A stretch of 64,000 bases of DNA from an uncultured Candidatus Saccharibacteria bacterium (lineage in GTDB: Bacteria > Patescibacteriota > Minisyncoccia > Phycocordibacterales > UBA9973): positions 22,628-86,627 of the forward strand of contig CAYVDC010000005.1 of assembly GCA_964450735.1 (NCBI GenBank). Direction: 5' to 3'. The translations under genes were made by a program, and so were the position numbers. How positions within the stretch are numbered: position 1 is the stretch's first letter; each line of letters opens with the position of its first letter. This document shows, piece by piece, positions 9,129 through 64,000 of this stretch. The notes below the pieces were generated by a model. It was not told the DNA's origin, ran no database searches, and was given only the letters and a program-made list of their open reading frames with translations.

Positions 9129-9201
9129 GCGCGGTTAGCTCAGTTGGTAGAGCGACCCCTTGACGTGGGGTAGGTCAGAGGTTCGACTCCTCTATCGCGC
9201 A
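9129..9201 (+). tRNA. tRNA-Val (anticodon GAC)
   Basis: GCGCGGT/ATCGCGC acceptor stem, anticodon loop TTGACGT, T-arm AGAGG-TTCGACT-CCTCT. Confidence 0.85.
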
Positions 9202-9274
9202 CTTTTTGAAAATCAACCCGACCAATAAAAAATAGCCCGGATACATTTCCGGGCTGTTGAAATTTACATATGTT

Positions 9275-14192: not shown

Positions 14193-15440
14193 TCAATACA
14201 CTTCCCCCATATACGGCAGCGGCAGGTTCCAAATATACGCATCGCGGCTTGTCTGTTCATCGCGCTCAACTTTTCTCCATGATACTGAGCCTAAACTTGC
14301 AGCCAGGTTGATTGCACCCGTCCCAAACCGCGCACGGATCTGGTCCACGGCGTGCAGTATTTCATTTTTCTCCAAAACTTTTTCCTGCGAGCCGAACAGA
14401 TCAAACTGAAGGTCTTTATTTTCCCGGAGCTCCATGACAGTAATTCCCGTTGCGCGATACATCATTCCCCGTTCATGCAGGCCCGTAATTTCTTTTTCGA
14501 GATAGGCCAGCATGTCACTCGGATTGTTCGTATGTTTTGGAAATCGCGTCCATGCAGACGTATAGCCTCTCAAACCATGTTTCCAGAATATCGAAGCTGC
14601 GCCGGCATACTGTCCGCTTTCTCGCAATCGCATACAGATGATTTCTATATTTCGGGAAAGTTCGGAACGCATGAAAGCAATATCGCTCGTCGCGTGGCTG
14701 AACGTGCGCACGGCCTGAAACGATTTCTGGACTTGATGCGATCCACCAACACGCACCGGCATGACGCTTCGGCAATTCAATTCATGCCACATTTCTTTGA
14801 TTGGCATGGCAAATTTTTTGATGTCAAAATCATTCATTCGTGCGAAGTCATATGCATACTGCCAGCCGCGATTGCGGAATTGCTCGCCAAGCCGCCAGCC
14901 AATGCCCCAGATATTTCCAATTGGAATTTTCTTGAGCGTTTCAATCACTTGTTCATCAAGCAAGACAGTACAGCCATCAGGCTTCTGTAATTTAGAGGCA
15001 ACTTTTGCCAGCACTTTTGTACTTGCTAATCCAAATGAAAACGTAATACCAAGCTCTCGCTGAACGGTAGTTTTGATACTGCGAAGCATTGCTTCCCACG
15101 AACCGTATTTCTTCATGTCTTCCTCTGAAAATTCTGCAAAGCATTCATCGATACTGTAGTGCTCGACTCGAGAGGTAAAACGCTTCATGACACTGTACAA
15201 TTTTTCCGAGTACATGTGATAGAGCTCAAAATGCGCATTCAGGATCGTGACCTGCGGAAACTCCCGCTTTATTTTAAAAATCGGCATGGCGCGATGAATA
15301 CCCAACGCTTTCGCTTCGTATGTCATGGCGCAAGCGATACCGCGGTCGCCTCCGACAACGACCGGTTTGCCTTTTAAGTTCGGGAATCTGGCCACCTCGC
15401 AGGCAGCAAAGAATCCGTCTCCATCTACATGCAAGATCAT
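14193..15440 (-). CDS. Y-family translesion DNA polymerase (DinB/UmuC-like)
   Basis: N-terminal ILHVDGDGFFAACE with catalytic Asp pair, SIDECF acidic motif; 4-nt overlap with upstream lexA. Confidence 0.85.
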   Translation of the reverse strand: MILHVDGDGFFAACEVARFPNLKGKPVVVGGDRGIACAMTYEAKALGIHRAMPIFKIKREFPQVTILNAHFELYHMYSEKLYSVMKRFTSRVEHYSIDECFAEFSEEDMKKYGSWEAMLRSIKTTVQRELGITFSFGLASTKVLAKVASKLQKPDGCTVLLDEQVIETLKKIPIGNIWGIGWRLGEQFRNRGWQYAYDFARMNDFDIKKFAMPIKEMWHELNCRSVMPVRVGGSHQVQKSFQAVRTFSHATSDIAFMRSELSRNIEIICMRLRESGQYAGAASIFWKHGLRGYTSAWTRFPKHTNNPSDMLAYLEKEITGLHERGMMYRATGITVMELRENKDLQFDLFGSQEKVLEKNEILHAVDQIRARFGTGAINLAASLGSVSWRKVERDEQTSRDAYIWNLPLPYMGEVY

Positions 15441-16118: not shown

Positions 16119-17237
16119 TTATTGTTTCTGTATAGTCAGCACCATCGGCTCTTCACCCACAAATGTTCCTAAATCGAACTTTTCGCCGGATTCAAGCTTT
16201 ACGCCAATAGTACAACTTCTCAGTGTACCTTCTGAAACTGCAGTAAATTTAACCACGCTGCCGGGAGATACTGTAAAAGATCTCCATAGAACTGGAGGCA
16301 GTTCAAATGTTTCCGTACTTCCCTGAAATGTATCGTTTACAAATAAGCTAACAAACACACTATCATGGTCATAAACAGAGTTATCGCCAATTGTTACTTC
16401 GATAGACTTATCTGTAAAAAGTGTTGCTTCACGTCCAGAAGTTTGTACGTAACTTTTCTTTTCAGGCTCTATCGGTGGAGCAGTAGCTGGAATTGTTATC
16501 GGCAATTTTTGATCTACTTTGTTGGTAGCCAAAACATTGAAGTACGTACGTGTTCCTTCTTCGCCTCCGCATGCACATTTTCCTACAATGCTATTGCTTA
16601 TTACATATACCGGCATGGGATACATAACGCTTTGCTTGTAGTCATTAACAAACCTGGTAATTGAAACATATACAAGTATATGCAATTCGCCGTTCGGTAT
16701 GTTGATGTTACCTGATTCCAGTACTTCACCCAAGTGGATGTTGCCATTTTTCCAGGCGTCCATGCTTTTGGTGCGACGATCGGAATTTACATACGAAGCA
16801 GCTTTCGCAGAAAGTAGCGAGGTCGCTCTGTCGTATGCAACAATCGGCAATGACTTATTGCTTTCAATATCTGCCTGTACCGGCTTCAGTATAAATGTTA
16901 CATCGCATACTATTCCACTAAAAGCATCTTCCATATTTCGGTAGCTGTCATCAGGATCTTTCAATCCGTATGGCCCAGCGGCGGAATACTTTTTTCTGGC
17001 AGTAGCAATGTCCATTTCTGTGTACCCCACCGGAGTAAATAAGTCCGGGCGAGAATACGCAAACCTCAGCAGCTCACGCGAGTGCAGCTCGATGCTGTTT
17101 GTGCTGCGTTCCTCAATCGTTTGTTTTTGATACTGGCTGATTTGGGCAACCATTTGTTTTGGTTCCATGCCTGATTGAGCAAACACAGATACCGAGAACA
17201 AACATACAAAGGAAAATAGAAAAAGGATTGGTTTCAT
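16119..17237 (-). CDS. Hypothetical secreted protein (372 aa)
   Basis: Signal peptide MKPILFLFSFVCLFSVSVFA; beta-rich C-terminal half; no motif recognised. Confidence 0.45.
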   Translation of the reverse strand: MKPILFLFSFVCLFSVSVFAQSGMEPKQMVAQISQYQKQTIEERSTNSIELHSRELLRFAYSRPDLFTPVGYTEMDIATARKKYSAAGPYGLKDPDDSYRNMEDAFSGIVCDVTFILKPVQADIESNKSLPIVAYDRATSLLSAKAASYVNSDRRTKSMDAWKNGNIHLGEVLESGNINIPNGELHILVYVSITRFVNDYKQSVMYPMPVYVISNSIVGKCACGGEEGTRTYFNVLATNKVDQKLPITIPATAPPIEPEKKSYVQTSGREATLFTDKSIEVTIGDNSVYDHDSVFVSLFVNDTFQGSTETFELPPVLWRSFTVSPGSVVKFTAVSEGTLRSCTIGVKLESGEKFDLGTFVGEEPMVLTIQKQ

Positions 17238-17365
17238 AATAATTGGTTTAATGGGTCAAAAAATATGTTGTTTTTAAAGAGATTTTAGCATATTACCATA
17301 TATTTGACATACAGTCAATGGTGTCCTTGAAAAATACCAGCAAGTAGTGTATCGTGTTGGTATAC

Positions 17366-17914
17366 ATGGCAAAAATCACTATTTTCGGATTAGCAGGTAC
17401 TGGCAAAAGTTCTACAGCAAAAGAACTTGCCGGTATTTTAAACTATGAATACCGATCAACCGGAAACATGTTTCGCGAGATGGCCGAAGAAGCAGGCATG
17501 GGGCTCAATGAGTTTGAAATAGTTTGCCAGGCAAATCCAAACCATGACCGAGAACTCGATGCGCGAACAGCTGATTATGGCAAAACGCATGACAATTTTA
17601 TTTTTGAATCTCGATTAGCATGGCATTTTATCCCCGACTCTTTCAAGATCATGCTTGTATGCGGACAAGAAGAGCGCATTAAGCGCGTTGCCGAACGAGA
17701 AAGTAAAACTGTTGAACTCGTCACAGAACAGACCTTGCATAGAGAATCTTCTATATACCGCCGTTTCAAAGAATTTTATGATATCGATGATATTAACGAT
17801 CCAAGCCATTATGACCTCATCGTTGATACTCAAAAAAACAACCTCATGGAAGTTGTTGCATTGATACTCCAGGCTCTGAAAGACCGCGAAATAGTTTCTA
17901 TTCCACAAAAATAG
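17366..17914 (+). CDS. cmk: Cytidylate kinase-like P-loop kinase (short/archaeal-type CMP kinase)
   Basis: IFGLAGTGKSS Walker A; about 180 aa; ORF opens at a GTG at 17354, ATG at 17366 preferred. Confidence 0.6.
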   Translation: MAKITIFGLAGTGKSSTAKELAGILNYEYRSTGNMFREMAEEAGMGLNEFEIVCQANPNHDRELDARTADYGKTHDNFIFESRLAWHFIPDSFKIMLVCGQEERIKRVAERESKTVELVTEQTLHRESSIYRRFKEFYDIDDINDPSHYDLIVDTQKNNLMEVVALILQALKDREIVSIPQK

Positions 17915-18923
17915 GCTCTGGCTCTATCTCAATATCAAACCTCTCCCGCACTTGTTGCTGTATATCAGCCACAAGTGCTTTGAGTTCGTCCGCAGTCGCA
18001 CCGCCTTTGTTGACGATGACCAATGCGTTTCCTGGATAAAGCTGTAAGTTGCCAAATTCTTTTCCTTTGAGTCCAAGCGTGTCGATAAGCCAACCCGCAC
18101 CCACCTTTACCGTCTGTTCATCAACTGGAAAAACAACAGCTTTCTCAAATGAAGCCTTGAGCTCGTTTCCCTTTTCGACAGATACAAATGGATTCTTGAA
18201 GAATGAACCGACGGATGCGATTTCTCGGGGATCAGGGAGTTTGTTTTTGCGAATTTCGATGATTGCTTCGCGAATTTCTTGAAGGGTCGGCTTGGCAATT
18301 CCTTTTTTCTCAAAGTATGAAGCCACGCCAGGATATGCTGGTGCCGTTGCCTCTTTTTTCTCAAGCTGAAAATCGACAGAAACGATAACATAACGATCTT
18401 TGCCCTCTCCTTTAAAAATACTGTTGCGGTACCCAAACTGACAGTCTTCGTTGAGAAAGGTGACAAATCCACCAAGGAGCGTATCGTAGGCATCAAGAGA
18501 GACGATCGTATCGGCAACTTCTGCGCCATACGCTCCGACGTTTTGAACTGGAGTTCCTCCAACAGATCCTGGTATAGCTGAGAGCGCCTCGAGGCCTGTA
18601 TATCCCATGTCTACTGTTCGAGAAACAACACTGTCCCATTCTTCACCTGCACCAAAACGGAAGATCGCCGTATTACCCTCTTCGTGTGTCTTTTCAAAGC
18701 CCGGGATTGCAATCTGAAGTACCAGCGCCTCAAGATTTGGCTCTGCGAAAATTGTATTTGACCCACCGCCAAGCACGACAACGGGGACGGCGTGAGATTC
18801 TGCGAACAAGTACGCATCAGTGATATCCATTTTGTCGGTAATTCGGGCAAAATACCGGGCCTCGGCCTGCATTCGGAATGTGGACAGTCCACTGAGATCT
18901 TTGTTTTCTTCGATCTGTAACAT
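17898..18923 (-). CDS. murB: UDP-N-acetylenolpyruvoylglucosamine reductase MurB
   Basis: VVVLGGGSNTIF FAD-binding motif; C-terminal MurB domain. Confidence 0.9.
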   Translation of the reverse strand: MLQIEENKDLSGLSTFRMQAEARYFARITDKMDITDAYLFAESHAVPVVVLGGGSNTIFAEPNLEALVLQIAIPGFEKTHEEGNTAIFRFGAGEEWDSVVSRTVDMGYTGLEALSAIPGSVGGTPVQNVGAYGAEVADTIVSLDAYDTLLGGFVTFLNEDCQFGYRNSIFKGEGKDRYVIVSVDFQLEKKEATAPAYPGVASYFEKKGIAKPTLQEIREAIIEIRKNKLPDPREIASVGSFFKNPFVSVEKGNELKASFEKAVVFPVDEQTVKVGAGWLIDTLGLKGKEFGNLQLYPGNALVIVNKGGATADELKALVADIQQQVRERFDIEIEPEPIFVE

Positions 18924-18951: not shown

Positions 18952-20502
18952 ATGCTACTTATGAACAAAGCGTCACAAGACACAACTACTACCAGCGAAC
19001 AAGAAAAGGTCGGATTTCTGATCAAAAAGCTCCGCGAACAGCGCGGCATGACCCAGGCCGAGTTTGCCAAAGCGCTTGCTACTTCCCAATCCGCAGTCGC
19101 CCGCATGGAATCTGGCGGCCAAAATCTCACTGTGGATCAACTCTCAAAAATCGGCGAGGTTCTTGACCGAAAGATCATGTCTCTTTCAGATGACTCAGTA
19201 GACTTCCAGATCGAAGGCGGACGCAAGCTTTCAGGAACCATTGAAACCAACTTTTCAAAAAACGGCGCCGTTGCACTCATTCCTGCTGCCCTGCTTAACA
19301 AAGGCACAACCATTTTGAATGGTATTCCAAAGATCGAAGAAGTATTTCGGCAAATTGAACTCTTCAAATCTATAGGAGTAGATGTTCAGTGGACCAAAGA
19401 AAATACTTTGAAGATCACTCCTCCAAAGCAATACGACCTCAAGCATATGGACGCTGGCGTAGCCAAGAAAATCCGCGTATCGCTCTATCTCTTTGGCGCA
19501 CTCGGCAAACAGTTGAAGTCTTTTTCTCTTCCCCATTCCGGCGGATGCAAAATGGGCAAACGAACAATCAAGGCGCATGAAGCTGGCCTTCATGAATTGG
19601 GATTGAATATCAAGACAACTGACACTGCATATGAAGTCAGCCACACGAAACTTTCAGGAGGAGAAGTTACTCTCTATGAATCAAGCGACATGGCAACGAT
19701 CAATATTCTTCTCCTTGCTGCGCAAATTCCACAGGAAACAGTAATTCACTTCGCTCAGGCAAACTACATGGTGCAAGATGTATGCTTCTTCCTCCAGGAA
19801 CTTGGCGTATCTATAGATGGCGTAGGTTCGAGCACCCTTCGCGTTCGAGGAATAGAAAGCATTACTAAGCCGATCGAATATTGCAACAGCGAAGACCCAA
19901 TTGAATCTATGATGTGGCTTTCTGCTGCAATCGTCACCAAGTCAAAACTTATCATCACTCGCTGCCCTATCGATTTCTTGCGACGAGAGCTTCTTGTTCT
20001 TGAAGACATGGGATTGAAGTTCACTACATCAAAAAAATACTTCTCATTTAATAACAAAACCGTACTTGTTGATATTACGGTTTTGCCTTCAAAGCTCCAC
20101 GCTCCAGAAGACAAGATCACTGCTCAGCCATATCCAGGCATTAACACCGACAACCTGCCATTCTTCGTTCCTATTGTTACTCAGGCAGAAGGAACAACGC
20201 TCATTCACGACTGGATGTGGGAAAATCGCGCGATCTATTTCACTGAGCTCAATCGCCTCGGTGCGCAGGTTACTTTGGCAGATCCGCATCGTGCATTCAT
20301 TACCGGCCCAAGCAAATTAAAAGGCGCACAAGTTGTTTGTCCTCCGGCACTTCGTCCTGCAACAATTATCCTTATCGCCATGCTTGCGGCCGAAGGCACT
20401 TCAACGCTTCGCAACGTGTATTCGATCAAACGCGGCTATGCTGAGATCGCTGAGCGTTTGAACTCAATCGGCGCGAATATTAAAGTCTTGAAAGGAATGT
20501 AA
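18952..20502 (+). CDS. murA: UDP-GlcNAc 1-carboxyvinyltransferase MurA with an in-frame N-terminal XRE-family HTH domain
   Basis: Residues about 20-75 are a Cro/C1-type HTH (LREQRGMTQAEFAKALATSQSAVARMESG); MurA begins at MSLSDDSVDFQIEGGRKLSG; active-site Cys in PHSGGCKMGKR. Confidence 0.85.
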   Translation: MLLMNKASQDTTTTSEQEKVGFLIKKLREQRGMTQAEFAKALATSQSAVARMESGGQNLTVDQLSKIGEVLDRKIMSLSDDSVDFQIEGGRKLSGTIETNFSKNGAVALIPAALLNKGTTILNGIPKIEEVFRQIELFKSIGVDVQWTKENTLKITPPKQYDLKHMDAGVAKKIRVSLYLFGALGKQLKSFSLPHSGGCKMGKRTIKAHEAGLHELGLNIKTTDTAYEVSHTKLSGGEVTLYESSDMATINILLLAAQIPQETVIHFAQANYMVQDVCFFLQELGVSIDGVGSSTLRVRGIESITKPIEYCNSEDPIESMMWLSAAIVTKSKLIITRCPIDFLRRELLVLEDMGLKFTTSKKYFSFNNKTVLVDITVLPSKLHAPEDKITAQPYPGINTDNLPFFVPIVTQAEGTTLIHDWMWENRAIYFTELNRLGAQVTLADPHRAFITGPSKLKGAQVVCPPALRPATIILIAMLAAEGTSTLRNVYSIKRGYAEIAERLNSIGANIKVLKGM

Positions 20503-20503
20503 T

Positions 20504-21694
20504 ATGGCAGTTGAAATTATCCTTGGAATTGAATCATCCTGCGACGATACTGGTATCGCCGTTTTAAAGGCGTCTCCAACTAAAACAAAAACAAATTTTG
20601 AAATTCTTGCAAATGAAATTAGTTCACAAACCAAGCTACATGAACAATATGGCGGCGTATTCCCTGCAATGGCAAAACGCGAACATGCAAAAAACATCGT
20701 TCCGCTTTTTACTGTTGCACTTGATAAAAGCAAACTGCTCAAAAAACGCAAAAAAGTAAAAGAGATAGACCCTAAGGTATTGCAAAAACTTACCAAGCTT
20801 CTCGAACGAGAAGCGGAAATGGTTTCGGTTATTGTTGATTTCGTTCAAACATATGAAAAACCAAAAATTGATAAAATTACTGTAACATCTGGGCCAGGAC
20901 TGGAACCGACATTGTGGGTTGGAATCAATTTTGCCCGAGCACTGGGCTTCCTCTTTGATGTACCGGTTATTCCGACAAACCACATGGAAGGACATATCCT
21001 TTCTGTAGCAATTCCTGAAGAGAAGACCTTTAGTATTTCTAAAGATAGTTTTAATTTCCCGCTAATCTCTCTCTTGGTTTCAGGAGGACACACAGAACTG
21101 GTTTTAGTAAAAGATATTGGCAAATACAAGCTCATAGGCGCAACGCGCGACGATGCAGCAGGCGAAGCATTCGACAAAGTCGCCCGCATGATGGACTTCC
21201 CCTATCCTGGCGGACCAAAGATATCTCAGCTCGCCCATGAAGGCCGCACAACGCTGGCATTTTCAGAATTCTCCTTCCCTCGTCCAATGATCCACTCAGG
21301 AGATCTTGATTTCTCTTTCTCAGGATTAAAAACAGCCGTACTCTACACGCTTCGCGATATGGGCGGCGTACTTTCAGAGAGCCGCAAGAAAGATCTTTCT
21401 CGAGAGTTCGAAGATGCAGTCGTTGAAGTATTGGTTACCAAGACACTGAAAGCCGTTCAGCAGAACAATGCTCGCGCCATAGTAGTTGGCGGCGGCGTAT
21501 CTGCAAACCAATGGCTCCGTTCTGAGCTCATGCGACGAGGAAAAGAATTCAATAAAAACCTTGCAATATATTTCCCAACCAAGCAGCTTTCAACCGACAA
21601 TGCACTTATGATCACCCTCGCTGGCTATTTAAAGTCACTTCGCATAAAAAAATTCCCCCGCACCATAAAGGCGGAGGGAAATTTGAAATTATAG
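20504..21694 (+). CDS. tsaD: tRNA N6-adenosine threonylcarbamoyltransferase TsaD (Kae1/Gcp family) with a lysine-rich insertion
   Basis: GIESSCDDTG and HMEGH metal-binding motifs; about 45-aa K-rich insert before TSGPG. Confidence 0.9.
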   Translation: MAVEIILGIESSCDDTGIAVLKASPTKTKTNFEILANEISSQTKLHEQYGGVFPAMAKREHAKNIVPLFTVALDKSKLLKKRKKVKEIDPKVLQKLTKLLEREAEMVSVIVDFVQTYEKPKIDKITVTSGPGLEPTLWVGINFARALGFLFDVPVIPTNHMEGHILSVAIPEEKTFSISKDSFNFPLISLLVSGGHTELVLVKDIGKYKLIGATRDDAAGEAFDKVARMMDFPYPGGPKISQLAHEGRTTLAFSEFSFPRPMIHSGDLDFSFSGLKTAVLYTLRDMGGVLSESRKKDLSREFEDAVVEVLVTKTLKAVQQNNARAIVVGGGVSANQWLRSELMRRGKEFNKNLAIYFPTKQLSTDNALMITLAGYLKSLRIKKFPRTIKAEGNLKL

Positions 21695-22365: not shown

Positions 22366-25143
22366 ATGGAAAACCCTCCAAACATTCCGGAAAAGTTCCT
22401 CAAGGCCTATGATGCTGCGGCTACTGAAAAAGATGTGTATCAGCGCTGGGAAGCCAGCGGCTTTTTTAATCCAGACAAATGCATAGAAGCTGGCGTCACT
22501 GCCCCCGATGCAAAGGCATTCACTATCATGATGCCTCCTCCGAACGTCACCGGCGTTCTTCACATGGGACATGCCATGATGCTCACCCTCGAAGACATTA
22601 TGATCCGATTCAAGCGAATGCAGGGCTACAAGACATTATGGCTTCCAGGAACTGACCACGCCGCAATTGCAACGCAATCAAAAGTAGAAAAAGAAATTCA
22701 AAAAAAAGAAGGCAAGTCTCGCCACGATCTCGGGCGAGAAGAATTGTTGAGCCGAGTGAATGCGTTTGCCCAAGACAGCCACGACACTATTGTCTCGCAG
22801 GTAAAAGTGATGGGCGCATCATGTGACTGGTCACGAGAGGCCTTTACCCTTGATGCTCCTCGCAATCGCGCGGTAAACACCATGTTCAAGAAAATGTACG
22901 ACGATGGATTGATCTATCGCGGACATCGCATCGTCAACTGGGATCCAAAAGGCCAAACAACTATCGCTGACGATGAAATCGTATACGAAGAGCGAAAGTC
23001 AAAGATGTACACATTTAAGTACTCAAAAGACTTCCCTATCTCGATCTCTACTACTCGACCTGAAACAAAGGTTGGTGACTCTGCGGTTGCAGTTCATCCC
23101 GAAGACCCTCGATACCAGGAATTTATCGGAAAAGAGTACGATGCAGTATTCTGCGGAGTTCCAATCCATATCAAAATCATTGCAGATGAATCGGTAGAAA
23201 AAGACTTTGGCACTGGCGCACTCGGCGTTACTCCTGCTCATTCGATGACAGACTGGGAAATCGCTGATCGTCACAACCTTCCACGCAATCCTGTCATCAA
23301 TGAATACGCAAAAATGACCGTTGGTGGAGAGAATATTAAAGGGAAAAAGACGACCGAAGCACGCGAAGTCATTGTTCAATGGTTGCGCGATGAGGGTTTG
23401 CTTGAAAAAGAAGAAGACGTCACTCAAAACATTGGAACTGCTGAACGAACCGGCGGCATTATTGAGCCGTTGCCGAAACTTCAGTGGTTTGTAGACGTAA
23501 ACAAGGAGTTCGAACTTCCTCACTCAAATCTCACCGGAATTCCAAGTGGATCAAAAACTACATTCAAAGAAATCATGCGCAAGACCGTCGAAAGCGGACA
23601 GATCAAAATTCTGCCTGAGTATTTCGACAAAACATATTTCCACTGGATCGACAATTTGCGCGACTGGTGCATCTCACGACAGATTTGGTACGGACACCGC
23701 GTGCCAGTGTGGTATGACGCAGAAAAGAAAGAACATCTTCCAAAAAAGATAACTCTTTTGCTTGCTCGGCACGGGGAAAGCGAAGCTAATGCCAACGACA
23801 TATTTAGCGGCGGCAATTTTGACAGCCCGCTCACTCAAAAAGGAATCGATCAAGCGCATGAACTCGGCAAGAACTGCAAGACAATGAAAATCGACGGCGT
23901 TCTTTCATCGGCAATGAGCCGCAGCAAAGACACTGCGAAGTTTGCTTGCGAGGAACTCGGTATCAATCCTACCTCGGTCATTGAAATTCCTGAACTGCAT
24001 GAAGTTAAAAGCGACATGGACGGAAAGCCGAAGACAAAAGACCACTTCCGATTGAGCCAATTGATTCGTGAAGGAAAGGGAGAAACGATTGAACAAATAA
24101 AAGACCGTGCGGATGCGGCGCTTGCGAAAATTTCTGCCCTCGACGAAGGCACGTATCTCGTTGTTGCTCATAATGCATTCAATGCCTGCCTCCAAGCCCG
24201 CATCATGGGGATGGACGGAGAAAAAATTATTCAGCACTGGGAACATGTTGGTATCCGAGATAATGGCTCGGTAATGGAAGTTACTCTCATTGTTAATCCT
24301 ACTGATCCAGAACTTAAACAAGATGAAGACACGCTCGACACTTGGTTTTCATCTGCTCTTTGGACATTCTCAACCCTCGGATGGCCTGACAAAACAAAAG
24401 ACTTGGAAATCTATCACCCAACCGATGTTCTTGAAACTGGATACGAGATCCTTTTCTTCTGGGTTGCCCGCATGATCCTCATGACTGGCTACGCACTCGG
24501 AGACATTCCATTCCACACCGTATACCTGCACGGTACTGTTCGAGACGGCCAAGGACGCAAAATGTCCAAATCACTCGGCAATGGAATCGATCCGCTCGAC
24601 ATCGCTGCAAAATACGGCGCTGACGCGGGACGTATGGCTCTTGTTGTTGGAACTGCAGCTGGAACTGACTCAAAAATTTCTGAAGACAAAATCAAAGGTT
24701 ACAAGAACTTCTGCAATAAGCTCTGGAACATTACACGATTCATTCTTTCCAACACAGAAAATGTCACTCTCGATGAATCCTTCGGCGCATGGAGCGAACA
24801 AGACACAAAACTGATCGCGGAATTCAATACCATCAAAGCAGAAGTCACCCGAGAATATTCTGAGTACAAATTCCATATCGTTTCTGAAAAATTGTATCAC
24901 TATGCATGGCACAGCCTCGCTGATGTGATACTTGAAGACAGTAAAAAAATATTTACCGAAGGCACCGATGCTGAGAAAGCTTCGCGAGCACAGTTCTTGC
25001 TTGCAACACTCTACGATCTCTTGAAGCTTCTCCATCCGCTCATGCCGTTTGTTACCGAAGAAATTTGGAGTTTGCTTCCTACACAGGGTCGACTCTTAAT
25101 GGTAACAAAGTGGCCTGCATTGGCCGAGCAGCATGAATCCTAA
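22366..25143 (+). CDS. valS: Valyl-tRNA synthetase carrying an inserted histidine-phosphatase domain
   Basis: HIGH motif PNVTGVLHMGHA, KMSKS motif, WYGHRVPVWYD and QDEDTLDTWFSSALW blocks; insert at residues about 458-648 has an RHGESEAN signature; no C-terminal coiled coil. Confidence 0.95.
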   Translation: MENPPNIPEKFLKAYDAAATEKDVYQRWEASGFFNPDKCIEAGVTAPDAKAFTIMMPPPNVTGVLHMGHAMMLTLEDIMIRFKRMQGYKTLWLPGTDHAAIATQSKVEKEIQKKEGKSRHDLGREELLSRVNAFAQDSHDTIVSQVKVMGASCDWSREAFTLDAPRNRAVNTMFKKMYDDGLIYRGHRIVNWDPKGQTTIADDEIVYEERKSKMYTFKYSKDFPISISTTRPETKVGDSAVAVHPEDPRYQEFIGKEYDAVFCGVPIHIKIIADESVEKDFGTGALGVTPAHSMTDWEIADRHNLPRNPVINEYAKMTVGGENIKGKKTTEAREVIVQWLRDEGLLEKEEDVTQNIGTAERTGGIIEPLPKLQWFVDVNKEFELPHSNLTGIPSGSKTTFKEIMRKTVESGQIKILPEYFDKTYFHWIDNLRDWCISRQIWYGHRVPVWYDAEKKEHLPKKITLLLARHGESEANANDIFSGGNFDSPLTQKGIDQAHELGKNCKTMKIDGVLSSAMSRSKDTAKFACEELGINPTSVIEIPELHEVKSDMDGKPKTKDHFRLSQLIREGKGETIEQIKDRADAALAKISALDEGTYLVVAHNAFNACLQARIMGMDGEKIIQHWEHVGIRDNGSVMEVTLIVNPTDPELKQDEDTLDTWFSSALWTFSTLGWPDKTKDLEIYHPTDVLETGYEILFFWVARMILMTGYALGDIPFHTVYLHGTVRDGQGRKMSKSLGNGIDPLDIAAKYGADAGRMALVVGTAAGTDSKISEDKIKGYKNFCNKLWNITRFILSNTENVTLDESFGAWSEQDTKLIAEFNTIKAEVTREYSEYKFHIVSEKLYHYAWHSLADVILEDSKKIFTEGTDAEKASRAQFLLATLYDLLKLLHPLMPFVTEEIWSLLPTQGRLLMVTKWPALAEQHES

Positions 25144-47966: not shown

Positions 47967-49874
47967 TTATGAATAACGCTCAAACTGCGCTGTTAATTTT
48001 TCTACTTCGCTCTTTGGTCCATATACCAATACGCCGAGGTATTCAATATCGCTAAAGTCTTTTGATTTCGTCATTTCGATCACTTTTTTGTCGTTAGTAG
48101 TCTCAATCATTTCGCGAGTGAATTCATCTACCTCAAGCTTTGCTTCTTTTGCAGAATGAGCAAGGGACTGGAGGTCGCTCGAAGAAGAAGCTGATTTGAT
48201 GATGATTGCCTGTTTTGTATTGAGCTTAATCGAAACATTATCCTTGGAAGTGATGGTGTCTTGAGTGAACAATTCCTTGCCTACTCGCGCACCAAAGGCC
48301 GCATTGAGATGCGCAACGGTATTCATTTCCTGCCACTTTTCAAGATTGATGCCAGTATTCAAAACCGCAACAGCAACCATAGTTTCTTTTTTCTTTGGAG
48401 CACCTTCGCCTTTCGGACGCATAAGAGGAAACATCACTGTTTCGCGAATTGGCTTTCCTGCAAGGACCGCAAACATACGATCACCCACAGGAGCGGAGCC
48501 GAACGCTGGCGGCATACCATGTTCAAGCATTTCTACGAATTCCCAGTCAGGCATCATTGCTTCATCATCTCCGCGTTCAATAAGTTTCTGCTGTTCTTCG
48601 AAACGTGCGCGCTGATCGAGCGGATCATTGAGCTCAGAGAAGCTGTTAGAAAATTCGCTTCCAGCCATAATAAGCTGACAGCGTTCTACTGTCTCAGGAT
48701 TTTCTGGACGTGCCTTTGCGAGCGGAGAAACGAGCTTTGGATGGTTGGTAAGCCACACAGGACCAGCAATTCCCTTTCGGCAATACTTCCAGAGCGAGTC
48801 GATCATTCGTTCACGAGTTGCGCCTTCGTATTCAACACCGAGTTCTTCGAGCTTGTCTGCAAGTTCTTTTTCGGAAGCCGTAAGCACGTCTACGCCGGTC
48901 TTTTCCAAAACGTATGGCACATATTCGATAACATCCCATTTTGGAGATAGATCGACATCGTAGCCTTTGACATTGAATTGCAATGTTCCAAAAGTCTTTT
49001 GGACGACGTCTTTGACCATTCGTTCAACGAGCTCCATGCCGCCTTTGTAATCCATGTATGCTGCATAGCACTCCATGTTGGTGAATTCCTGAAGATGTTC
49101 AGGAGATGAGCCTTCATTGCGGTATACGCGGCCAATCTCAAATACTTTCGGAAATCCTGCTGCAAGAGCGCGTTTCTGCCAGAGTTCTCCAACTGAGATA
49201 CGCATGTATACATCCATGCTGAAATCATTGTGATATGTTTTGAATGGTCGAGCTTCCGCACCTCCGGTAGTTGTCTCAATGGTAGGTGTTTCAATTTCCA
49301 GGAAACCTTCATTCAGCATGAATTCACGTGCTGACCTCCAAAAGAGCGATCGCTTTTCAAGAAGCGCGCGGAGATCCGCGTCCATGAGGATATCAAGATA
49401 TCGTTTGCGGTAGCGTTCATCTGGGTCGGTAATACCATGCCATTTTTCTGGAAGTGGAGCGAGTGTTTTGGTTCCCATTTTCCAATTTGAAACAAGGATA
49501 GATGGCTCCCCTCGTTCTGTAGTAAAGAGCGTTCCGGTGACCTGGATAAAATCCCCAAGGTCTACGGTTTCAGTGAATAATGAAAAGATTGATTCTTCAA
49601 TATCGTCTTTTTTGAAAACAGCCTGAAATTTTGCCGTGCCGTCATTGAGCACTGCAAAGAGGATCGCTCCTTGTCCGCGGAGGGCCATAACACGGCCAGC
49701 AAGCGTGATTGGGGCTTTGATATTATCAAACTGCGCTCGAACGTCAGCCAAGCTTTTGTCGCGGTCAATATGCGCTGGGTATGATTCCATGCCAGCGGCA
49801 GTAAGTTTCTCAAGTTTTTCCAACCGGTTCGCGCGTATTTCTTCGAGTGATGCCATATGGGACGAGTATAGCAA
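47967..49874 (-). CDS. lysS: Lysyl-tRNA synthetase (class II) with a C-terminal extension of about 147 aa
   Basis: OB anticodon-binding N-domain, class II motifs (FLEIETP; GGAEARPF; ELCNAFTE-like region), core ends ...MFPLMRPK at about residue 488, then an extra domain. Confidence 0.9.
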   Translation of the reverse strand: MLYSSHMASLEEIRANRLEKLEKLTAAGMESYPAHIDRDKSLADVRAQFDNIKAPITLAGRVMALRGQGAILFAVLNDGTAKFQAVFKKDDIEESIFSLFTETVDLGDFIQVTGTLFTTERGEPSILVSNWKMGTKTLAPLPEKWHGITDPDERYRKRYLDILMDADLRALLEKRSLFWRSAREFMLNEGFLEIETPTIETTTGGAEARPFKTYHNDFSMDVYMRISVGELWQKRALAAGFPKVFEIGRVYRNEGSSPEHLQEFTNMECYAAYMDYKGGMELVERMVKDVVQKTFGTLQFNVKGYDVDLSPKWDVIEYVPYVLEKTGVDVLTASEKELADKLEELGVEYEGATRERMIDSLWKYCRKGIAGPVWLTNHPKLVSPLAKARPENPETVERCQLIMAGSEFSNSFSELNDPLDQRARFEEQQKLIERGDDEAMMPDWEFVEMLEHGMPPAFGSAPVGDRMFAVLAGKPIRETVMFPLMRPKGEGAPKKKETMVAVAVLNTGINLEKWQEMNTVAHLNAAFGARVGKELFTQDTITSKDNVSIKLNTKQAIIIKSASSSSDLQSLAHSAKEAKLEVDEFTREMIETTNDKKVIEMTKSKDFSDIEYLGVLVYGPKSEVEKLTAQFERYS

Positions 49875-61548: not shown

Positions 61549-61662
61549 CTTTTTAGGATCTTTGGATTTCTCGTAATTCCAACAAATCTGGCAGCGACTG
61601 CCAACATACTCGTGCCCGCGGCTGCAGACTTTTCCTTCAGAATTTTTTTTCTGCTTGCTCAT
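61543..61662 (-). CDS. Candidate 39-aa zinc-ribbon-like small protein, start overlapping the upstream stop (TAATG)
   Basis: MSKQKKNSEGKVCSRGHEYVGSRCQICWNYEKSKDPKKK; C-x3-H-x6-C-x2-C; below the ORF-track length cut-off; found by reading the strand. Confidence 0.3.
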   Translation of the reverse strand: MSKQKKNSEGKVCSRGHEYVGSRCQICWNYEKSKDPKKK

Positions 61663-64000
61663 TAGTGAGAATTTACGAATGATCTGGTAAGCGGTCCGAA
61701 GTACCCAATGGCAGGCGCAATTTTGTTCGCTTTCTGGAATTTAATCAAGGCGGCAGCTGTCTTTGCACCAAAGGTGGTAACCTCGTTACCGGCTGAACCC
61801 ATTCCAGAAGTTGCTATTGGAAAACCATGAGTGTTTAAGTACTTTTGCAATTGTAGTACTTCCTCACTGCCTGAACCAAGCTTCAACGTTTGAGTAAATA
61901 CAAACTTGGCAGCTGATGGCTGTGTATTTAGGGATGTAATAGTAGCAGGCTGTAATGTAGTTAAAGTTCCTACTGACGGTGTCTGACTTGAAACGAATTG
62001 TACGGGAACACCGCCACCGTTCGTTGTATTTGCCTGTGCAGCAATACCAACACATCCAGAGACGACACCTCCATCTATGACTGACCAATTATATACCCCC
62101 ATCAAACGAGCTCGAGACGCTGATGCCAAGCAATACTTGCTTTGTCCTCCGTCAAAAGAAACATTTGATCGGAGATTTTGGCTTGCCCAAGAGCTCAGCA
62201 TGGCATCATAATTTGTCCGTGAAAGCGTAACTCCAGTAAACATATCAACCATATTGGTAACATCAGCGACATCCCACGAGCTCAAATTCTGGTCAAAATC
62301 TGTGGTGAGATAAAACATGCTGTCCATGTTTGTAACATTACTAGTATCCCACGAGCTAATATCCTGATTGAAGTGCGTGTCATACGCAAACATTGCATAC
62401 ATATCTGTTGCAGCACTTACATCCCAACCGCTGATGTCTTGATTGAAACTTGTGCCTTGAAATGCGTTTCCAAAATATGTCACATGGCTGACATCCCAAT
62501 TATCCAGTGGCTGATTAAAAAGCTCAGCACCCATAAACAGTGTCCCCATTCCAATGACGCTTGAAGTATCCCAATTATTGAGTGGCTGGTTGAATGCATT
62601 CGCCTCATAGAACATTCCGCCCATTCCGGTAACATGTGACACATCCCATGAATTGAGCGGCTGGTTGAATGCATTTGTGCTCATAAACATTGAAGACATA
62701 TTCGTCACATTGGCAGTATTCCAGTTGCTTATGTTTTGGTTGAATACGGAAGCTCCCATAAACATGCCATCAAAACTTGTCGCACTTGATACATCCCAGT
62801 TATTGAGCGGCTGGTTGAATGCAGCTGCACCGGTAAACATCGAATCAAATCGAGTAACATGAGAGACATCCCAAGAGTTGAGCGGCTGGTTGAATGCGGC
62901 ATCAGCGTAAAACAAACCAATCATATTAGTCACATTTGAAGTGTCCCACGATGAAATGTCTCCATTGAATGCTGTTCCTTGAAAAACCCCGATCATTGAA
63001 ATGATAGATCCAGTATCCCAACCGCTCAGATCTTCGGTAGTGACTCCGCTGTCTCGAAGCATATATGTCATATCTGTGACGCCGGAAAGGTCGGGAGCAT
63101 CAGTGGCGGTAATTGCAAGATTGGTACATCCAAAAAATGCACCAGCCATATTTTCCCATGCTATCGTGCCCCATTGATCAACTGAGAGTATTTTATTTTT
63201 ATCACCAGCATATGCAAACGTTATCGCTGGAAAAACACCAGAAATTGATACTGTGTATGTACCGGGCGTCACATAGGTATGTGTAATTGCCCCTGTAACA
63301 CCAGTATCTGTATTTGAATCTCCCCAATCAACATTGTAGTTATACGTAAGACCATTTGTTGTTGGAATAGTGATCTGATTGCTGCTGGATACTCCAGGAT
63401 TGTCTGTTTTCCAAGTAGTAATAAATTCTGTTGCAGGAGCATCAAGGTCCGTAATTACAATCTCATCAACATAGTCACGATCAACTGCAGCTCCATATCC
63501 AGCTGTGTATTGAACAAGACCAGATGGGTAGGTCGCATCTGTTGCAGAACCAAGCAGCGTATAGGTAACGCCGTCATCTGAATAGTAAAAACTCAATGAA
63601 GTGCCAATTGCGGTTGCTTTAAACCAGCGAGGCTGTGATTTCGGCAAACTACCACTCCACAGCGGAGTATATGTTCCTGAAGAAACTCGCCAAATATATA
63701 CGTTGCTTGAATCATAGACATGGAATAAATATCCCATTCGCGCACCTGCTGAGTTTACTACGCTCGTATCAATTGCTTGGGCGCGAAGAGTAAATCCACC
63801 GCGACCAAGATTGTTCGAGTAAGCCTGTTTCCATATTACTGATTGATCCGCTGAACCAGCAAAGTTATCAAATAATATTCCGGCAATAACGCCAGTTTGC
63901 GTAACAGCTCGTAATGAATTACCCAATGTTGGTTCATTTTGAACATCAAAAGTTCCTGCAGTTACTGTTGTATTTGCAGGAACTTGGCCGATTGTATCAG
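61662..64000 (-). CDS. Large surface protein with PKD domain, DUF285-type repeats and C-terminal peptidoglycan-binding domain; 5' end lies outside the window
   Basis: Frame open to the window edge; PKD-like VDWGDSNTDTG..PGTYTV; about 12 repeats FNQPLN[NS]WDVS.VT.M; C-terminal PG_binding_1-like LQLQKYLNTHGF... Confidence 0.7.
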   Translation of the reverse strand, partial: DTIGQVPANTTVTAGTFDVQNEPTLGNSLRAVTQTGVIAGILFDNFAGSADQSVIWKQAYSNNLGRGGFTLRAQAIDTSVVNSAGARMGYLFHVYDSSNVYIWRVSSGTYTPLWSGSLPKSQPRWFKATAIGTSLSFYYSDDGVTYTLLGSATDATYPSGLVQYTAGYGAAVDRDYVDEIVITDLDAPATEFITTWKTDNPGVSSSNQITIPTTNGLTYNYNVDWGDSNTDTGVTGAITHTYVTPGTYTVSISGVFPAITFAYAGDKNKILSVDQWGTIAWENMAGAFFGCTNLAITATDAPDLSGVTDMTYMLRDSGVTTEDLSGWDTGSIISMIGVFQGTAFNGDISSWDTSNVTNMIGLFYADAAFNQPLNSWDVSHVTRFDSMFTGAAAFNQPLNNWDVSSATSFDGMFMGASVFNQNISNWNTANVTNMSSMFMSTNAFNQPLNSWDVSHVTGMGGMFYEANAFNQPLNNWDTSSVIGMGTLFMGAELFNQPLDNWDVSHVTYFGNAFQGTSFNQDISGWDVSAATDMYAMFAYDTHFNQDISSWDTSNVTNMDSMFYLTTDFDQNLSSWDVADVTNMVDMFTGVTLSRTNYDAMLSSWASQNLRSNVSFDGGQSKYCLASASRARLMGVYNWSVIDGGVVSGCVGIAAQANTTNGGGVPVQFVSSQTPSVGTLTTLQPATITSLNTQPSAAKFVFTQTLKLGSGSEEVLQLQKYLNTHGFPIATSGMGSAGNEVTTFGAKTAAALIKFQKANKIAPAIGYFGPLTRSFVNSH
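62232..63164 (-). repeat. In-frame tandem repeats of about 66-69 nt (22-23 aa) inside the surface-protein gene
   Basis: Protein-level repeats F[ND]Q.[LI][SN].WD[VT]S.VT.M.[SG]MF repeated about 12 times. Confidence 0.6.

Follow-up and report, generated by a model that had tools for sequence, protein, structure and literature searches.

What is a complete phosphatase doing inside a bacterial aminoacyl-tRNA synthetase? This question is raised by valS, the gene for valine--tRNA ligase (valyl-tRNA synthetase, ValRS) in the 64-kb stretch of contig CAYVDC010000005.1 that was analysed here and is called the window below. Aminoacyl-tRNA synthetases are among the most conserved enzymes, and their accessory domains are best known in eukaryotes, where they add non-translational functions. 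A first-pass annotation of the window had described valS as one continuous frame of 925 codons that retains HIGH, KMSKS and two conserved blocks, and had placed a histidine-phosphatase (HP) domain between these blocks at positions 23737-24309. All of these elements were found. The open reading frame (ORF) list gives valS as 925 residues plus stop in a single unbroken frame; the block WYGHRVPVWY lies at residues 441-450 and the block QDEDTLDTWFSS at residues 652-663. The proposed phosphatase region corresponds to residues 458-648 and falls inside an inserted segment of residues 451-651, so that 201 residues separate VPVWY from QDEDTLDTW in the valS product.

The identity of the inserted segment was assessed with the His_Phos_1 model of Pfam (PF00300, cutoff 21.7 bits). 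The match reached 97.7 bits (E=8.7e-28) when the whole protein was scanned and 102.6 bits (E=2.7e-29) when the segment was excised, and it covered profile positions ~1-180 of 194. This is far above chance, and a complete branch-1 HP domain is present. The signature that had been read from the letters alone, an RHG motif with a downstream His in an AHN context, is there as R468-H469-G470, R519, E546 and H602, with G470 completing the RHG motif. In an alignment of 28 ValRS inserts (A1), the members of which are as little as 22% identical to the window insert, the invariant columns are R18, H19, G20, G43, S65, R69, T73, E96 and H152. The R-H-R-E-H set is complete in 70 of the 77 synthetase-embedded HP domains recovered by a wider profile search. 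Comparison of the window with two HP-bearing relatives gave dN/dS ratios of 0.18-0.24 for the insert and 0.04-0.06 for the core, which are rough values since dS is saturated; by these ratios, the insert evolves under purifying selection. The GC content of the insert equals that of its flanks.

The isolated HP domain was modelled by AlphaFold2 (AF2) with a pLDDT of 96.1, and the full-length protein with a mean pLDDT of 89 and a pTM of 0.84 (pLDDT 84-97 over the insert). The fold predicted for the insert is of the PGM/PhoE alpha/beta type and is nearest to those of small-metabolite phosphatases (HFP, PspA, CobC and PhoE). The first and last HP strands (residues 460-468 and 636-643) adjoin the two junctions in the model, which is consistent with a domain whose ends emerge near each other, as loop insertion needs, and which plugs into the position of a hairpin. 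Among named families, CobC (TIGR03162) scored highest for the insert, at 68.4 bits, still below the membership cutoff of 162.9; the cutoffs of the second CobC model (NF011580, 66 bits versus 250) and of the dPGM models (NF038349, 60.7 versus 225; TIGR01258, 32.3 versus 81.7) were not reached either. Since the insert reaches no curated subfamily cutoff, the substrate cannot be inferred from homology.

The surrounding synthetase was then compared with curated ValRS models. The valS product matched the NF004349 valS equivalog with 888.4 bits (cutoff 704) and TIGR00422 with 820 bits (cutoff 612.1); both matches are broken into two stretches by the insert, the first of which stops at residues 456-458. 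Pfam tRNA-synt_1 spans residues 24-474 and Anticodon_1 spans residues 813-921. In a 50-sequence ValRS alignment (A2), H69, K732, S734 and K735 are invariant, and TTRPET, the GTG...TPAHS...D block and D296 of the CP1 editing domain are conserved; the editing-domain crystal structures 1wka and 1wk9 match residues 212-353. valS is the sole class Ia synthetase ORF within the window, and its product is the organism's housekeeping ValRS, with all catalytic and editing motifs intact (Table 1). The C-terminal coiled-coil tRNA-binding arm typical of bacterial ValRS (PF10458) gave no Pfam match in the valS product and is listed for none of the best 120 ValRS matches. Given that these matches include insert-less relatives of 722-821 residues, the arm is missing as a trait of the lineage and independently of the insert; it is present in other HP-bearing ValRS.

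Table 1. Positions in the window of valS, its synthetase body and the inserted HP segment.
Feature	Positions	Strand	Basis
valS ORF, valine--tRNA ligase with nested HP domain	22366..25143	+	ORF list; NCBIfam
N-terminal ValRS body, residues 1-445: first Rossmann half, CP core, CP1 editing, CP2, CP2-CP3 linker	22366..23700	+	Pfam, 1GAX alignment
HIGH motif as HMGH, residues 66-69	22561-22572	+	motif position
CP1 editing motif TTRPET	23050-23067	+	motif position
CP1 editing motif GTGALGVTPAHS	23209-23244	+	motif position
CP2-CP3 linker LRDWCISRQIWYGHR	23656-23700	+	motif position
Inserted segment at CP3 position, residues 451-651: N-linker DAEKKEHLPKK, HP domain, C-linker NPTDPELK	23716..24318	+	alignment to insert-less relatives
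His_Phos_1 (PF00300) match, residues 464-640	23755..24285	+	Pfam
Codons R468-H469 of RHG motif; H469 the predicted phospho-accepting nucleophile	23767..23772	+	invariant columns R18, H19 in A1
Codon R519, second phosphate-binding arginine (predicted)	23920..23922	+	invariant column R69 in A1
Codon E546, predicted proton donor	24001..24003	+	invariant column E96 in A1
Codon H602, distal catalytic histidine, AHN context	24169..24171	+	invariant column H152 in A1
C-terminal ValRS body, residues 652-925: QDEDTLDTWFSS, second Rossmann half, KMSKS, anticodon-binding domain	24319..25140	+	1GAX alignment, Pfam
KMSKS, residues 732-736	24559-24573	+	motif position

The position of the insert was located by alignment with Thermus thermophilus ValRS (1GAX). 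The valS product aligns with 1GAX residues 5-418 and 443-707, and the gap means that the insert stands in place of residues 418-443, about 25 residues. The closest insert-less relatives have 18 residues at this site, CP3 (24 counting V446 to Q), a length shared by 72 of 118 sequences, and their CP3 is a hairpin, for example VPVWY-KDEEIFTGLEAPAGEGWK-Q. The HP segment is flanked by short conserved linkers, …HLPK… and …NP-x-G-x-x-L-x-Q. The first-pass annotation was right that this gene carries many extra residues in the loop after the WYD block (201 versus 18 in relatives or ~25 in T. thermophilus), but they are not a simple addition: as judged from the alignments, the HP domain substitutes for the CP3 hairpin rather than merely lengthening the loop. 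In isoleucyl-tRNA synthetase (IleRS), CP3 lies between the CP2-CP3 linker and the second Rossmann half, and its fold varies by species; the CP3 of Thermus binds zinc (PMC7191050, PMC7955072). The linker, which contributes to the pocket for the tRNA CCA end (PMC7955072), reads ARDWNVSRNRYWG in yeast IleRS versus LRDWCISRQIWYG in the window ValRS. By this correspondence, CP3 is a surface loop beside the synthetase active site, directly after the linker lining the tRNA CCA pocket. Core substitutions consistently tracking the insert were searched for and none was found, so that CP3 acts as a plug-in position.

CP3 has no assigned function in a published catalogue of class I insertion modules, where it is entered as a cysteine-rich zinc finger of 25-77 residues (PMC10810186). 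The insert resembles the CP3 modules of class Ia synthetases, such as the zinc knuckle of T. thermophilus ValRS and IleRS, in occupying the same slot, from the W-x-ISR-x-x-WG linker to the D-x-W-F-x-S helix; moreover, the HP-bearing sequences P0034, P0070 and P0076 retain Cys-x2-C knuckles around the HP domain. It differs in that the usual module is short and non-enzymatic, whereas a 200-residue enzyme domain from an unrelated superfamily is found here. CP3 is a hot spot more generally: at the site equivalent to window positions 23701-24318, P0078, P0117, P0019, P0046 and P0118 carry unrelated segments of 26-112 residues or Cys-x2-Cys...Cys-x2-Cys (Cys4) knuckles. The longest, in P0078, has 112 residues versus the usual 24 and no obvious similarity to HP.

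Considering that a patchy occurrence at one conserved site is superficially intein-like, we asked whether the insert could stem from chimeric assembly or could be a selfish, intein-like element that is excised during protein maturation. PF00300 is also present in 27 of the 120 best ValRS matches (906-1001 residues, 57-86% identical); because the match lists are ranked by score, neither this fraction nor the ~30 of 150 reported below is a prevalence (ascertainment bias). The HP-bearing matches derive from assemblies of four sources (NCBI, JGI, ENA and Logan); among them are a protein recorded as 'Valine-tRNA ligase [Candidatus Nomurabacteria bacterium GW2011_GWB1_37_5]' and a gene on a 1.37-Mb contig. 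Judged by the names of the best matches, the window belongs to the Patescibacteria/CPR (Paceibacteria-type). The gene order murB, murA-like, tsaD, valS, prsW, hsp20 is shared by the window and most of the HP-bearing and HP-less loci compared, and valS-prsW-hsp20 is kept in every one of them. An assembly chimera was therefore rejected, given the in-frame recurrence in 27 other protein clusters and the conserved gene order, and the earlier statement that both junctions are in frame held. The Pfam scan of the valS product contained no Hint, intein or homing-endonuclease domain. The junctions read WY|DAEKK and PELK|QDED (D/A on the N-side, K/Q on the C-side), with no Cys/Ser/Thr start and no His-Asn end, and the search for junction repeats or target-site duplications gave only short chance-level matches and no repeat pair bracketing the insert. 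With no Hint domain and unsuited junction residues, the intein reading was likewise rejected, in agreement with the first-pass annotation. The flank-like GC content and the purifying selection on the insert also stand against an artefact or a selfish element, which is thus almost certainly the wrong explanation, and we regard the nested architecture as real with hardly any reservation. The recurrence of the insertion in relatives, which had been raised as a point to survey, was borne out, but the insertion is not peculiar to the ValRS of this lineage: it is widespread among uncultured bacteria, polymorphic even between sister species and found in IleRS as well.

The history of the HP module was followed in neighbour-joining trees, which carry no support values, and in DNA comparisons. 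In the tree of core ValRS sequences, from which the loop had been cut out, HP-bearing genes are scattered among HP-less ones. Sister pairs of an HP-bearing and an HP-less sequence are the window and P0005 (95% core identity), P0003 and P0006 (90%), P0008 and P0015 (96%), and P0009 with P0036 and P0024 (97%). Because sister species with 95-97% identical cores carry a plain hairpin, the HP module is dispensable for ValRS function. In DNA identity, the window stands at 80-86% with locus L001, which is HP-less, and at only 69-75% with the HP-bearing L003, and the flanking genes show the same difference; in the DNA alignment, homology to L001 stops at 23725 and restarts at 24316. The same picture was obtained for L005 (HP-bearing) and L007 (HP-less), which are 87-93% identical over 10 kb except for CP3, where 612 bp face 54 bp.

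The relationship between insert and host gene was further assessed by pairwise identities. Insert and core identity are uncorrelated (Spearman -0.01, 378 pairs). The window insert is 54% identical to the inserts of P0045 and P0049, the cores of which are the most distant (61%), and only 33% identical to those of P0007-P0010, with 75% identical cores; by these comparisons, the phylogeny of the module is uncoupled from that of the host gene. Neither form can arise from the other by simple deletion, since hairpin and HP cassette alike are old and conserved; the pattern points instead to replacement of the CP3 segment by recombination across the highly conserved flanks. A stretch of 120 nt directly downstream of the insert, in which L005/L007 identity falls to 78% (85-98% elsewhere) and L005 is equally near (80%) to L017, a bearer of the same insert type, may be a trace of such recombination; this mosaic is suggestive, not proven. 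Collectively, the comparisons suggest that valS alleles exchange their CP3 cassettes, HP or hairpin, through homologous recombination. The patchy presence and the suggested exchange of cassettes are new here.

To determine how far the domain extends beyond ValRS of this kind, the 28 inserts were turned into a profile with which 1.84 billion representative proteins were searched; the best 150 of 545 matches at E<=1e-30 were considered. About 30 of the 150 are class Ia synthetases with one to four HP domains; the remainder are free-standing single HPs of ~178-200 residues or tandem proteins of two to four HPs. The best 150 of 545 matches include no further kind of host: every non-HP part is ValRS or IleRS, and the JGI product names of the HP-bearing clusters are valyl- or isoleucyl-tRNA synthetase. 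P0187, P0197 and P0223 are HP-bearing ValRS of a different type, in which the C-terminal arm is present. P0333 is a genuine IleRS (TIGR00392, 856 bits, cutoff 621) with its HP domain between WAISRDRYWGTPLPVW and DVWFDSG, that is, in the CP3 of IleRS, and the IleRS P0196, P0199, P0206, P0232 and P0238 (761-857 bits) carry two HP domains each. ValRS P0184 has a tandem HP pair in CP3, and ValRS P0182 has one HP at the CP2 loop and one at CP3. HP domains were also found at two further sites: in the loop that leads directly into the CP2 helices, and in a loop that connects two helices within the anticodon-binding domain. In an unsupported neighbour-joining tree of HP domains, the embedded domains form several groups mixed with free-standing ones, a pattern that fits several independent insertions into synthetases.

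Two to four HP domains are carried by P0181, P0182, P0184, P0196, P0199, P0206, P0232 and P0238, which are ValRS or IleRS of 1087-1538 residues; the copies stand in tandem in CP3 and/or at the pre-CP2 loop and the loop of the anticodon-binding domain. Seven embedded HP domains have an incomplete catalytic set; two of them (P0183.2 and P0184.2) are the second copy in their protein. The nearest non-embedded relatives among the best 150 matches are free-standing tandem double-HP proteins (68 matches, ~410-430 residues, e.g. P0185, P0194 and P0189) and minimal single HPs of ~178 residues.

Further searches were made with the inserts. A word-indexed protein search with the insert alone returned distant free-standing HPs only (32-35% identity), no ValRS and no donor; with the 28-insert alignment, mostly free-standing HPs were retrieved, together with one fragment, P0341, that joins PF00133 and PF00300. 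A reference-genome scan with a 7-sequence insert alignment yielded only a single species representative (L011, encoding P0003). Nothing informative was seen in the genomic context of the nearest free-standing relatives, P0201 and P0246. A free-standing His_Phos gene of L005 (266 residues, 14296-15096 on the minus strand, 3.5 kb downstream of valS) was rejected as a local donor, since it is only distantly related to the inserts (54 bits versus the insert profile). Near it, at 17121-18727 (minus strand), L005 encodes a very large RHS/YD-repeat protein of the SpvB type.

Given the complete set of catalytic residues, the HP domain is probably catalytically active. Its chemistry would be that of a phosphomonoesterase acting via a phospho-His469 intermediate, with Arg468, Arg519 and His602 as the phosphate-binding residues and Glu546 as the donor of a proton to the leaving group. 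The substrate would most likely be a small phosphorylated metabolite or nucleotide, and the HP domain would be an auxiliary enzyme attached to the synthetase but outside the aminoacylation reaction. We favour this reading, an autonomous, small-substrate accessory phosphomonoesterase that is dispensable for aminoacylation, because the fold neighbours are metabolite phosphatases, the surface is acidic and the core shows no co-adaptation; we put its probability at roughly one half. The inserts have a mean net charge of -4.7, and RNA binding is not what such acidity suggests. Insertion sites remote from the catalytic cleft, and tandem arrays, fit an accessory enzyme as well, as position would not be critical. 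A precedent for a functionally independent fused HP domain is mycobacterial RnhC, whose RNase HI and CobC-like HP moieties work separately from each other (PMC7466739; bioRxiv 10.1101/2022.11.09.515703).

Several points weigh against autonomy. The restriction of hosts to ValRS and IleRS among the best 150 of 545 matches, the use of at least three sites and the presence of up to four copies argue for some functional coupling. This host specificity is not explained by an autonomous enzyme, so that our confidence in autonomy is moderate and coupled roles stay alive. Furthermore, CP3 begins ~10 residues past the linker of the CCA pocket, which makes closeness of the HP domain to the tRNA 3' end plausible. 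The comparative evidence is also limited by unsupported trees, score-ranked match lists and saturated dS.

Considering these points, we asked what a coupled HP domain could do. As a repair or immunity phosphatase, it could restore aminoacylation by dephosphorylating, in cis, a macromolecule whose phosphorylated form prevents charging. The target might be a 3'-phosphate or 3'-pyrophosphate of the toxSAS type at the CCA terminus of the cognate tRNA, or a phospho-serine that a Hip-type kinase toxin has introduced in the KMSKS region of the synthetase itself. Toxins of both classes are known: CCA ends are pyrophosphorylated by toxSAS enzymes in a tRNA-specific manner (PMC11559606), and class I synthetases are phosphorylation targets of HipA and HipT (PMC6581861). 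The position of CP3 immediately after the linker of the CCA pocket, the confinement of embedding to two synthetases via several independent insertions, and a patchy, fast-turnover, multi-copy distribution that resembles that of conflict genes all point the same way. Against this, the nearest structural relatives are metabolite, not protein, phosphatases, the inserts are acidic, and one insertion site lies in the anticodon-binding domain, remote from the catalytic cleft. To our knowledge, no HP enzyme acts on RNA 3' ends, and we know of no toxin specific for tRNA-Val/Ile or ValRS/IleRS; none was noticed near valS in the loci compared. A coupled repair role therefore seems unlikely, though it deserves more weight than the other alternatives. 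In a sharper form of it, the HP domain would be a synthetase-borne countermeasure that strips the CCA-end 3'-(pyro)phosphate of tRNA-Val/tRNA-Ile or a toxin-added phosphate of the synthetase, and the patchy, recombining, multi-copy spread would be the footprint of an arms race against phage or competitor (pyrophospho)kinase toxins; this version is the more doubtful of the two.

A role closer to the reaction itself is a little less probable again. The HP domain might hydrolyse AMP, pyrophosphate or a nearby nucleotide, and thereby pull the reaction forward or feed nucleoside salvage in a genome-reduced organism. CP3 lies beside the ATP/adenylate site, the fold is that of a small-substrate phosphatase, and broad-specificity HP relatives such as PhoE hydrolyse nucleotides. 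However, AMP and pyrophosphate are made by all 20 synthetases, whereas only ValRS and IleRS were seen as hosts among the best 150 of 545 matches; in addition, sister species cope without the domain, and the other insertion sites are far from the active site. Finally, the HP fold could be a non-catalytic CP3 scaffold, for example for dimerisation or tRNA contact. HP enzymes often dimerise, tandem or paired HP domains could form pseudo-dimers, CP3 is structurally variable and tolerates replacement, and incomplete catalytic sets occur in second copies (two of seven). The five catalytic residues are nevertheless invariant in 28 of 28 ValRS inserts and complete in the great majority of embedded domains, which is unexpected for a scaffold, and the inserts are net negative. 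A pseudo-enzyme scaffold was rejected for these two reasons, catalytic-residue invariance and negative charge, and we consider a structural role highly improbable. An accessory phosphomonoesterase is thus preferred over each of these alternatives.

The accessory HP domain was also compared with known systems. RnhC (MSMEG_4305, Rv2228c) is alike in pairing a branch-1 HP domain with an enzyme that acts in nucleic-acid metabolism and in having two separable activities, which is the behaviour proposed for the HP domain of ValRS; the RnhC-type model NF005567 matches the insert weakly (45 bits). RnhC differs in being an end-to-end fusion confined to Actinomycetales, whereas the domain described here is nested in a catalytic-domain loop of ValRS/IleRS from bacteria of the candidate phyla radiation type and varies in presence and copy number. 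The free-standing enzymes HFP (9mmh), PspA (4ij5), CobC (6e4b) and PhoE/YhfR (1h2e) are only 24-29% identical to the insert, and, in contrast to free-standing small HPs, an additional strand at the C-terminus of the insert places its two ends close to each other, as suits a loop. The NCBI exception model NF040702, 'isoleucine--tRNA ligase, N-acetyltransferase domain-containing', also describes a class Ia synthetase with an extra enzyme domain, but that accessory domain is a GNAT, not an HP. No model naming an HP-bearing synthetase is among the NCBIfam models matched by the valS product, and the public database names of such sequences are generic ('valine--tRNA ligase', 'class I tRNA ligase family protein'). 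The first-pass impression that a phosphatase inside a synthetase was undescribed was upheld: a full-text literature search gave no description of an HP/PGM-like domain in ValRS, IleRS or another synthetase, although absence there is not proof. Synthetases with accessory domains are already known, and an HP-superfamily domain nested in CP3 seems to be a new, undescribed variant.

What sets this variant apart is a complete second enzyme inside the catalytic domain of a bacterial synthetase, in two paralogous hosts, three loops and up to four copies, which is turned over between closely related species. If the domain is autonomous, it would be a clear natural case of 'domain-in-loop' enzyme packaging in genome-reduced bacteria, with CP3 as a plug-in site for engineering. 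If it is coupled to the tRNA or the synthetase, it would represent a new form of translational quality control or anti-toxin defence. The available sequence diversity suffices for a direct biochemical test.

The cognate substrate of ValRS in the window, tRNA-Val(GAC) (9129-9202, plus strand), is ordinary, with discriminator A73; its 3' CCA is not encoded, and CTTTTT follows the gene. Extra modules had also been ascribed to the nearby lysS and tsaD genes. This is correct for lysS (47967-49874, minus strand, 634 residues), a second decorated synthetase in the window, which combines an OB anticodon-binding domain and a class II core with a C-terminal DUF2000 (PF09391, E=8e-20). The tsaD product (20504-21694, plus strand, 396 residues) has only a split Pfam match, in two stretches, with Lys/Glu-rich extra sequence near residues 75-118; no additional Pfam domain was detected, and an extra module is weakly supported there. 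Upstream of tsaD, a MurA-like enolpyruvyl transferase of the EPSP_synthase family (18952-20502, plus strand, 516 residues) carries an N-terminal HTH_3 DNA-binding domain, and this fusion is kept in all related contigs compared (L001, L003, L005 and L007). Near the end of the window, at 61662-63926 on the minus strand, a 753-residue protein combines four DUF285 repeats, a Mycoplasma-type family, with a C-terminal peptidoglycan-binding domain.

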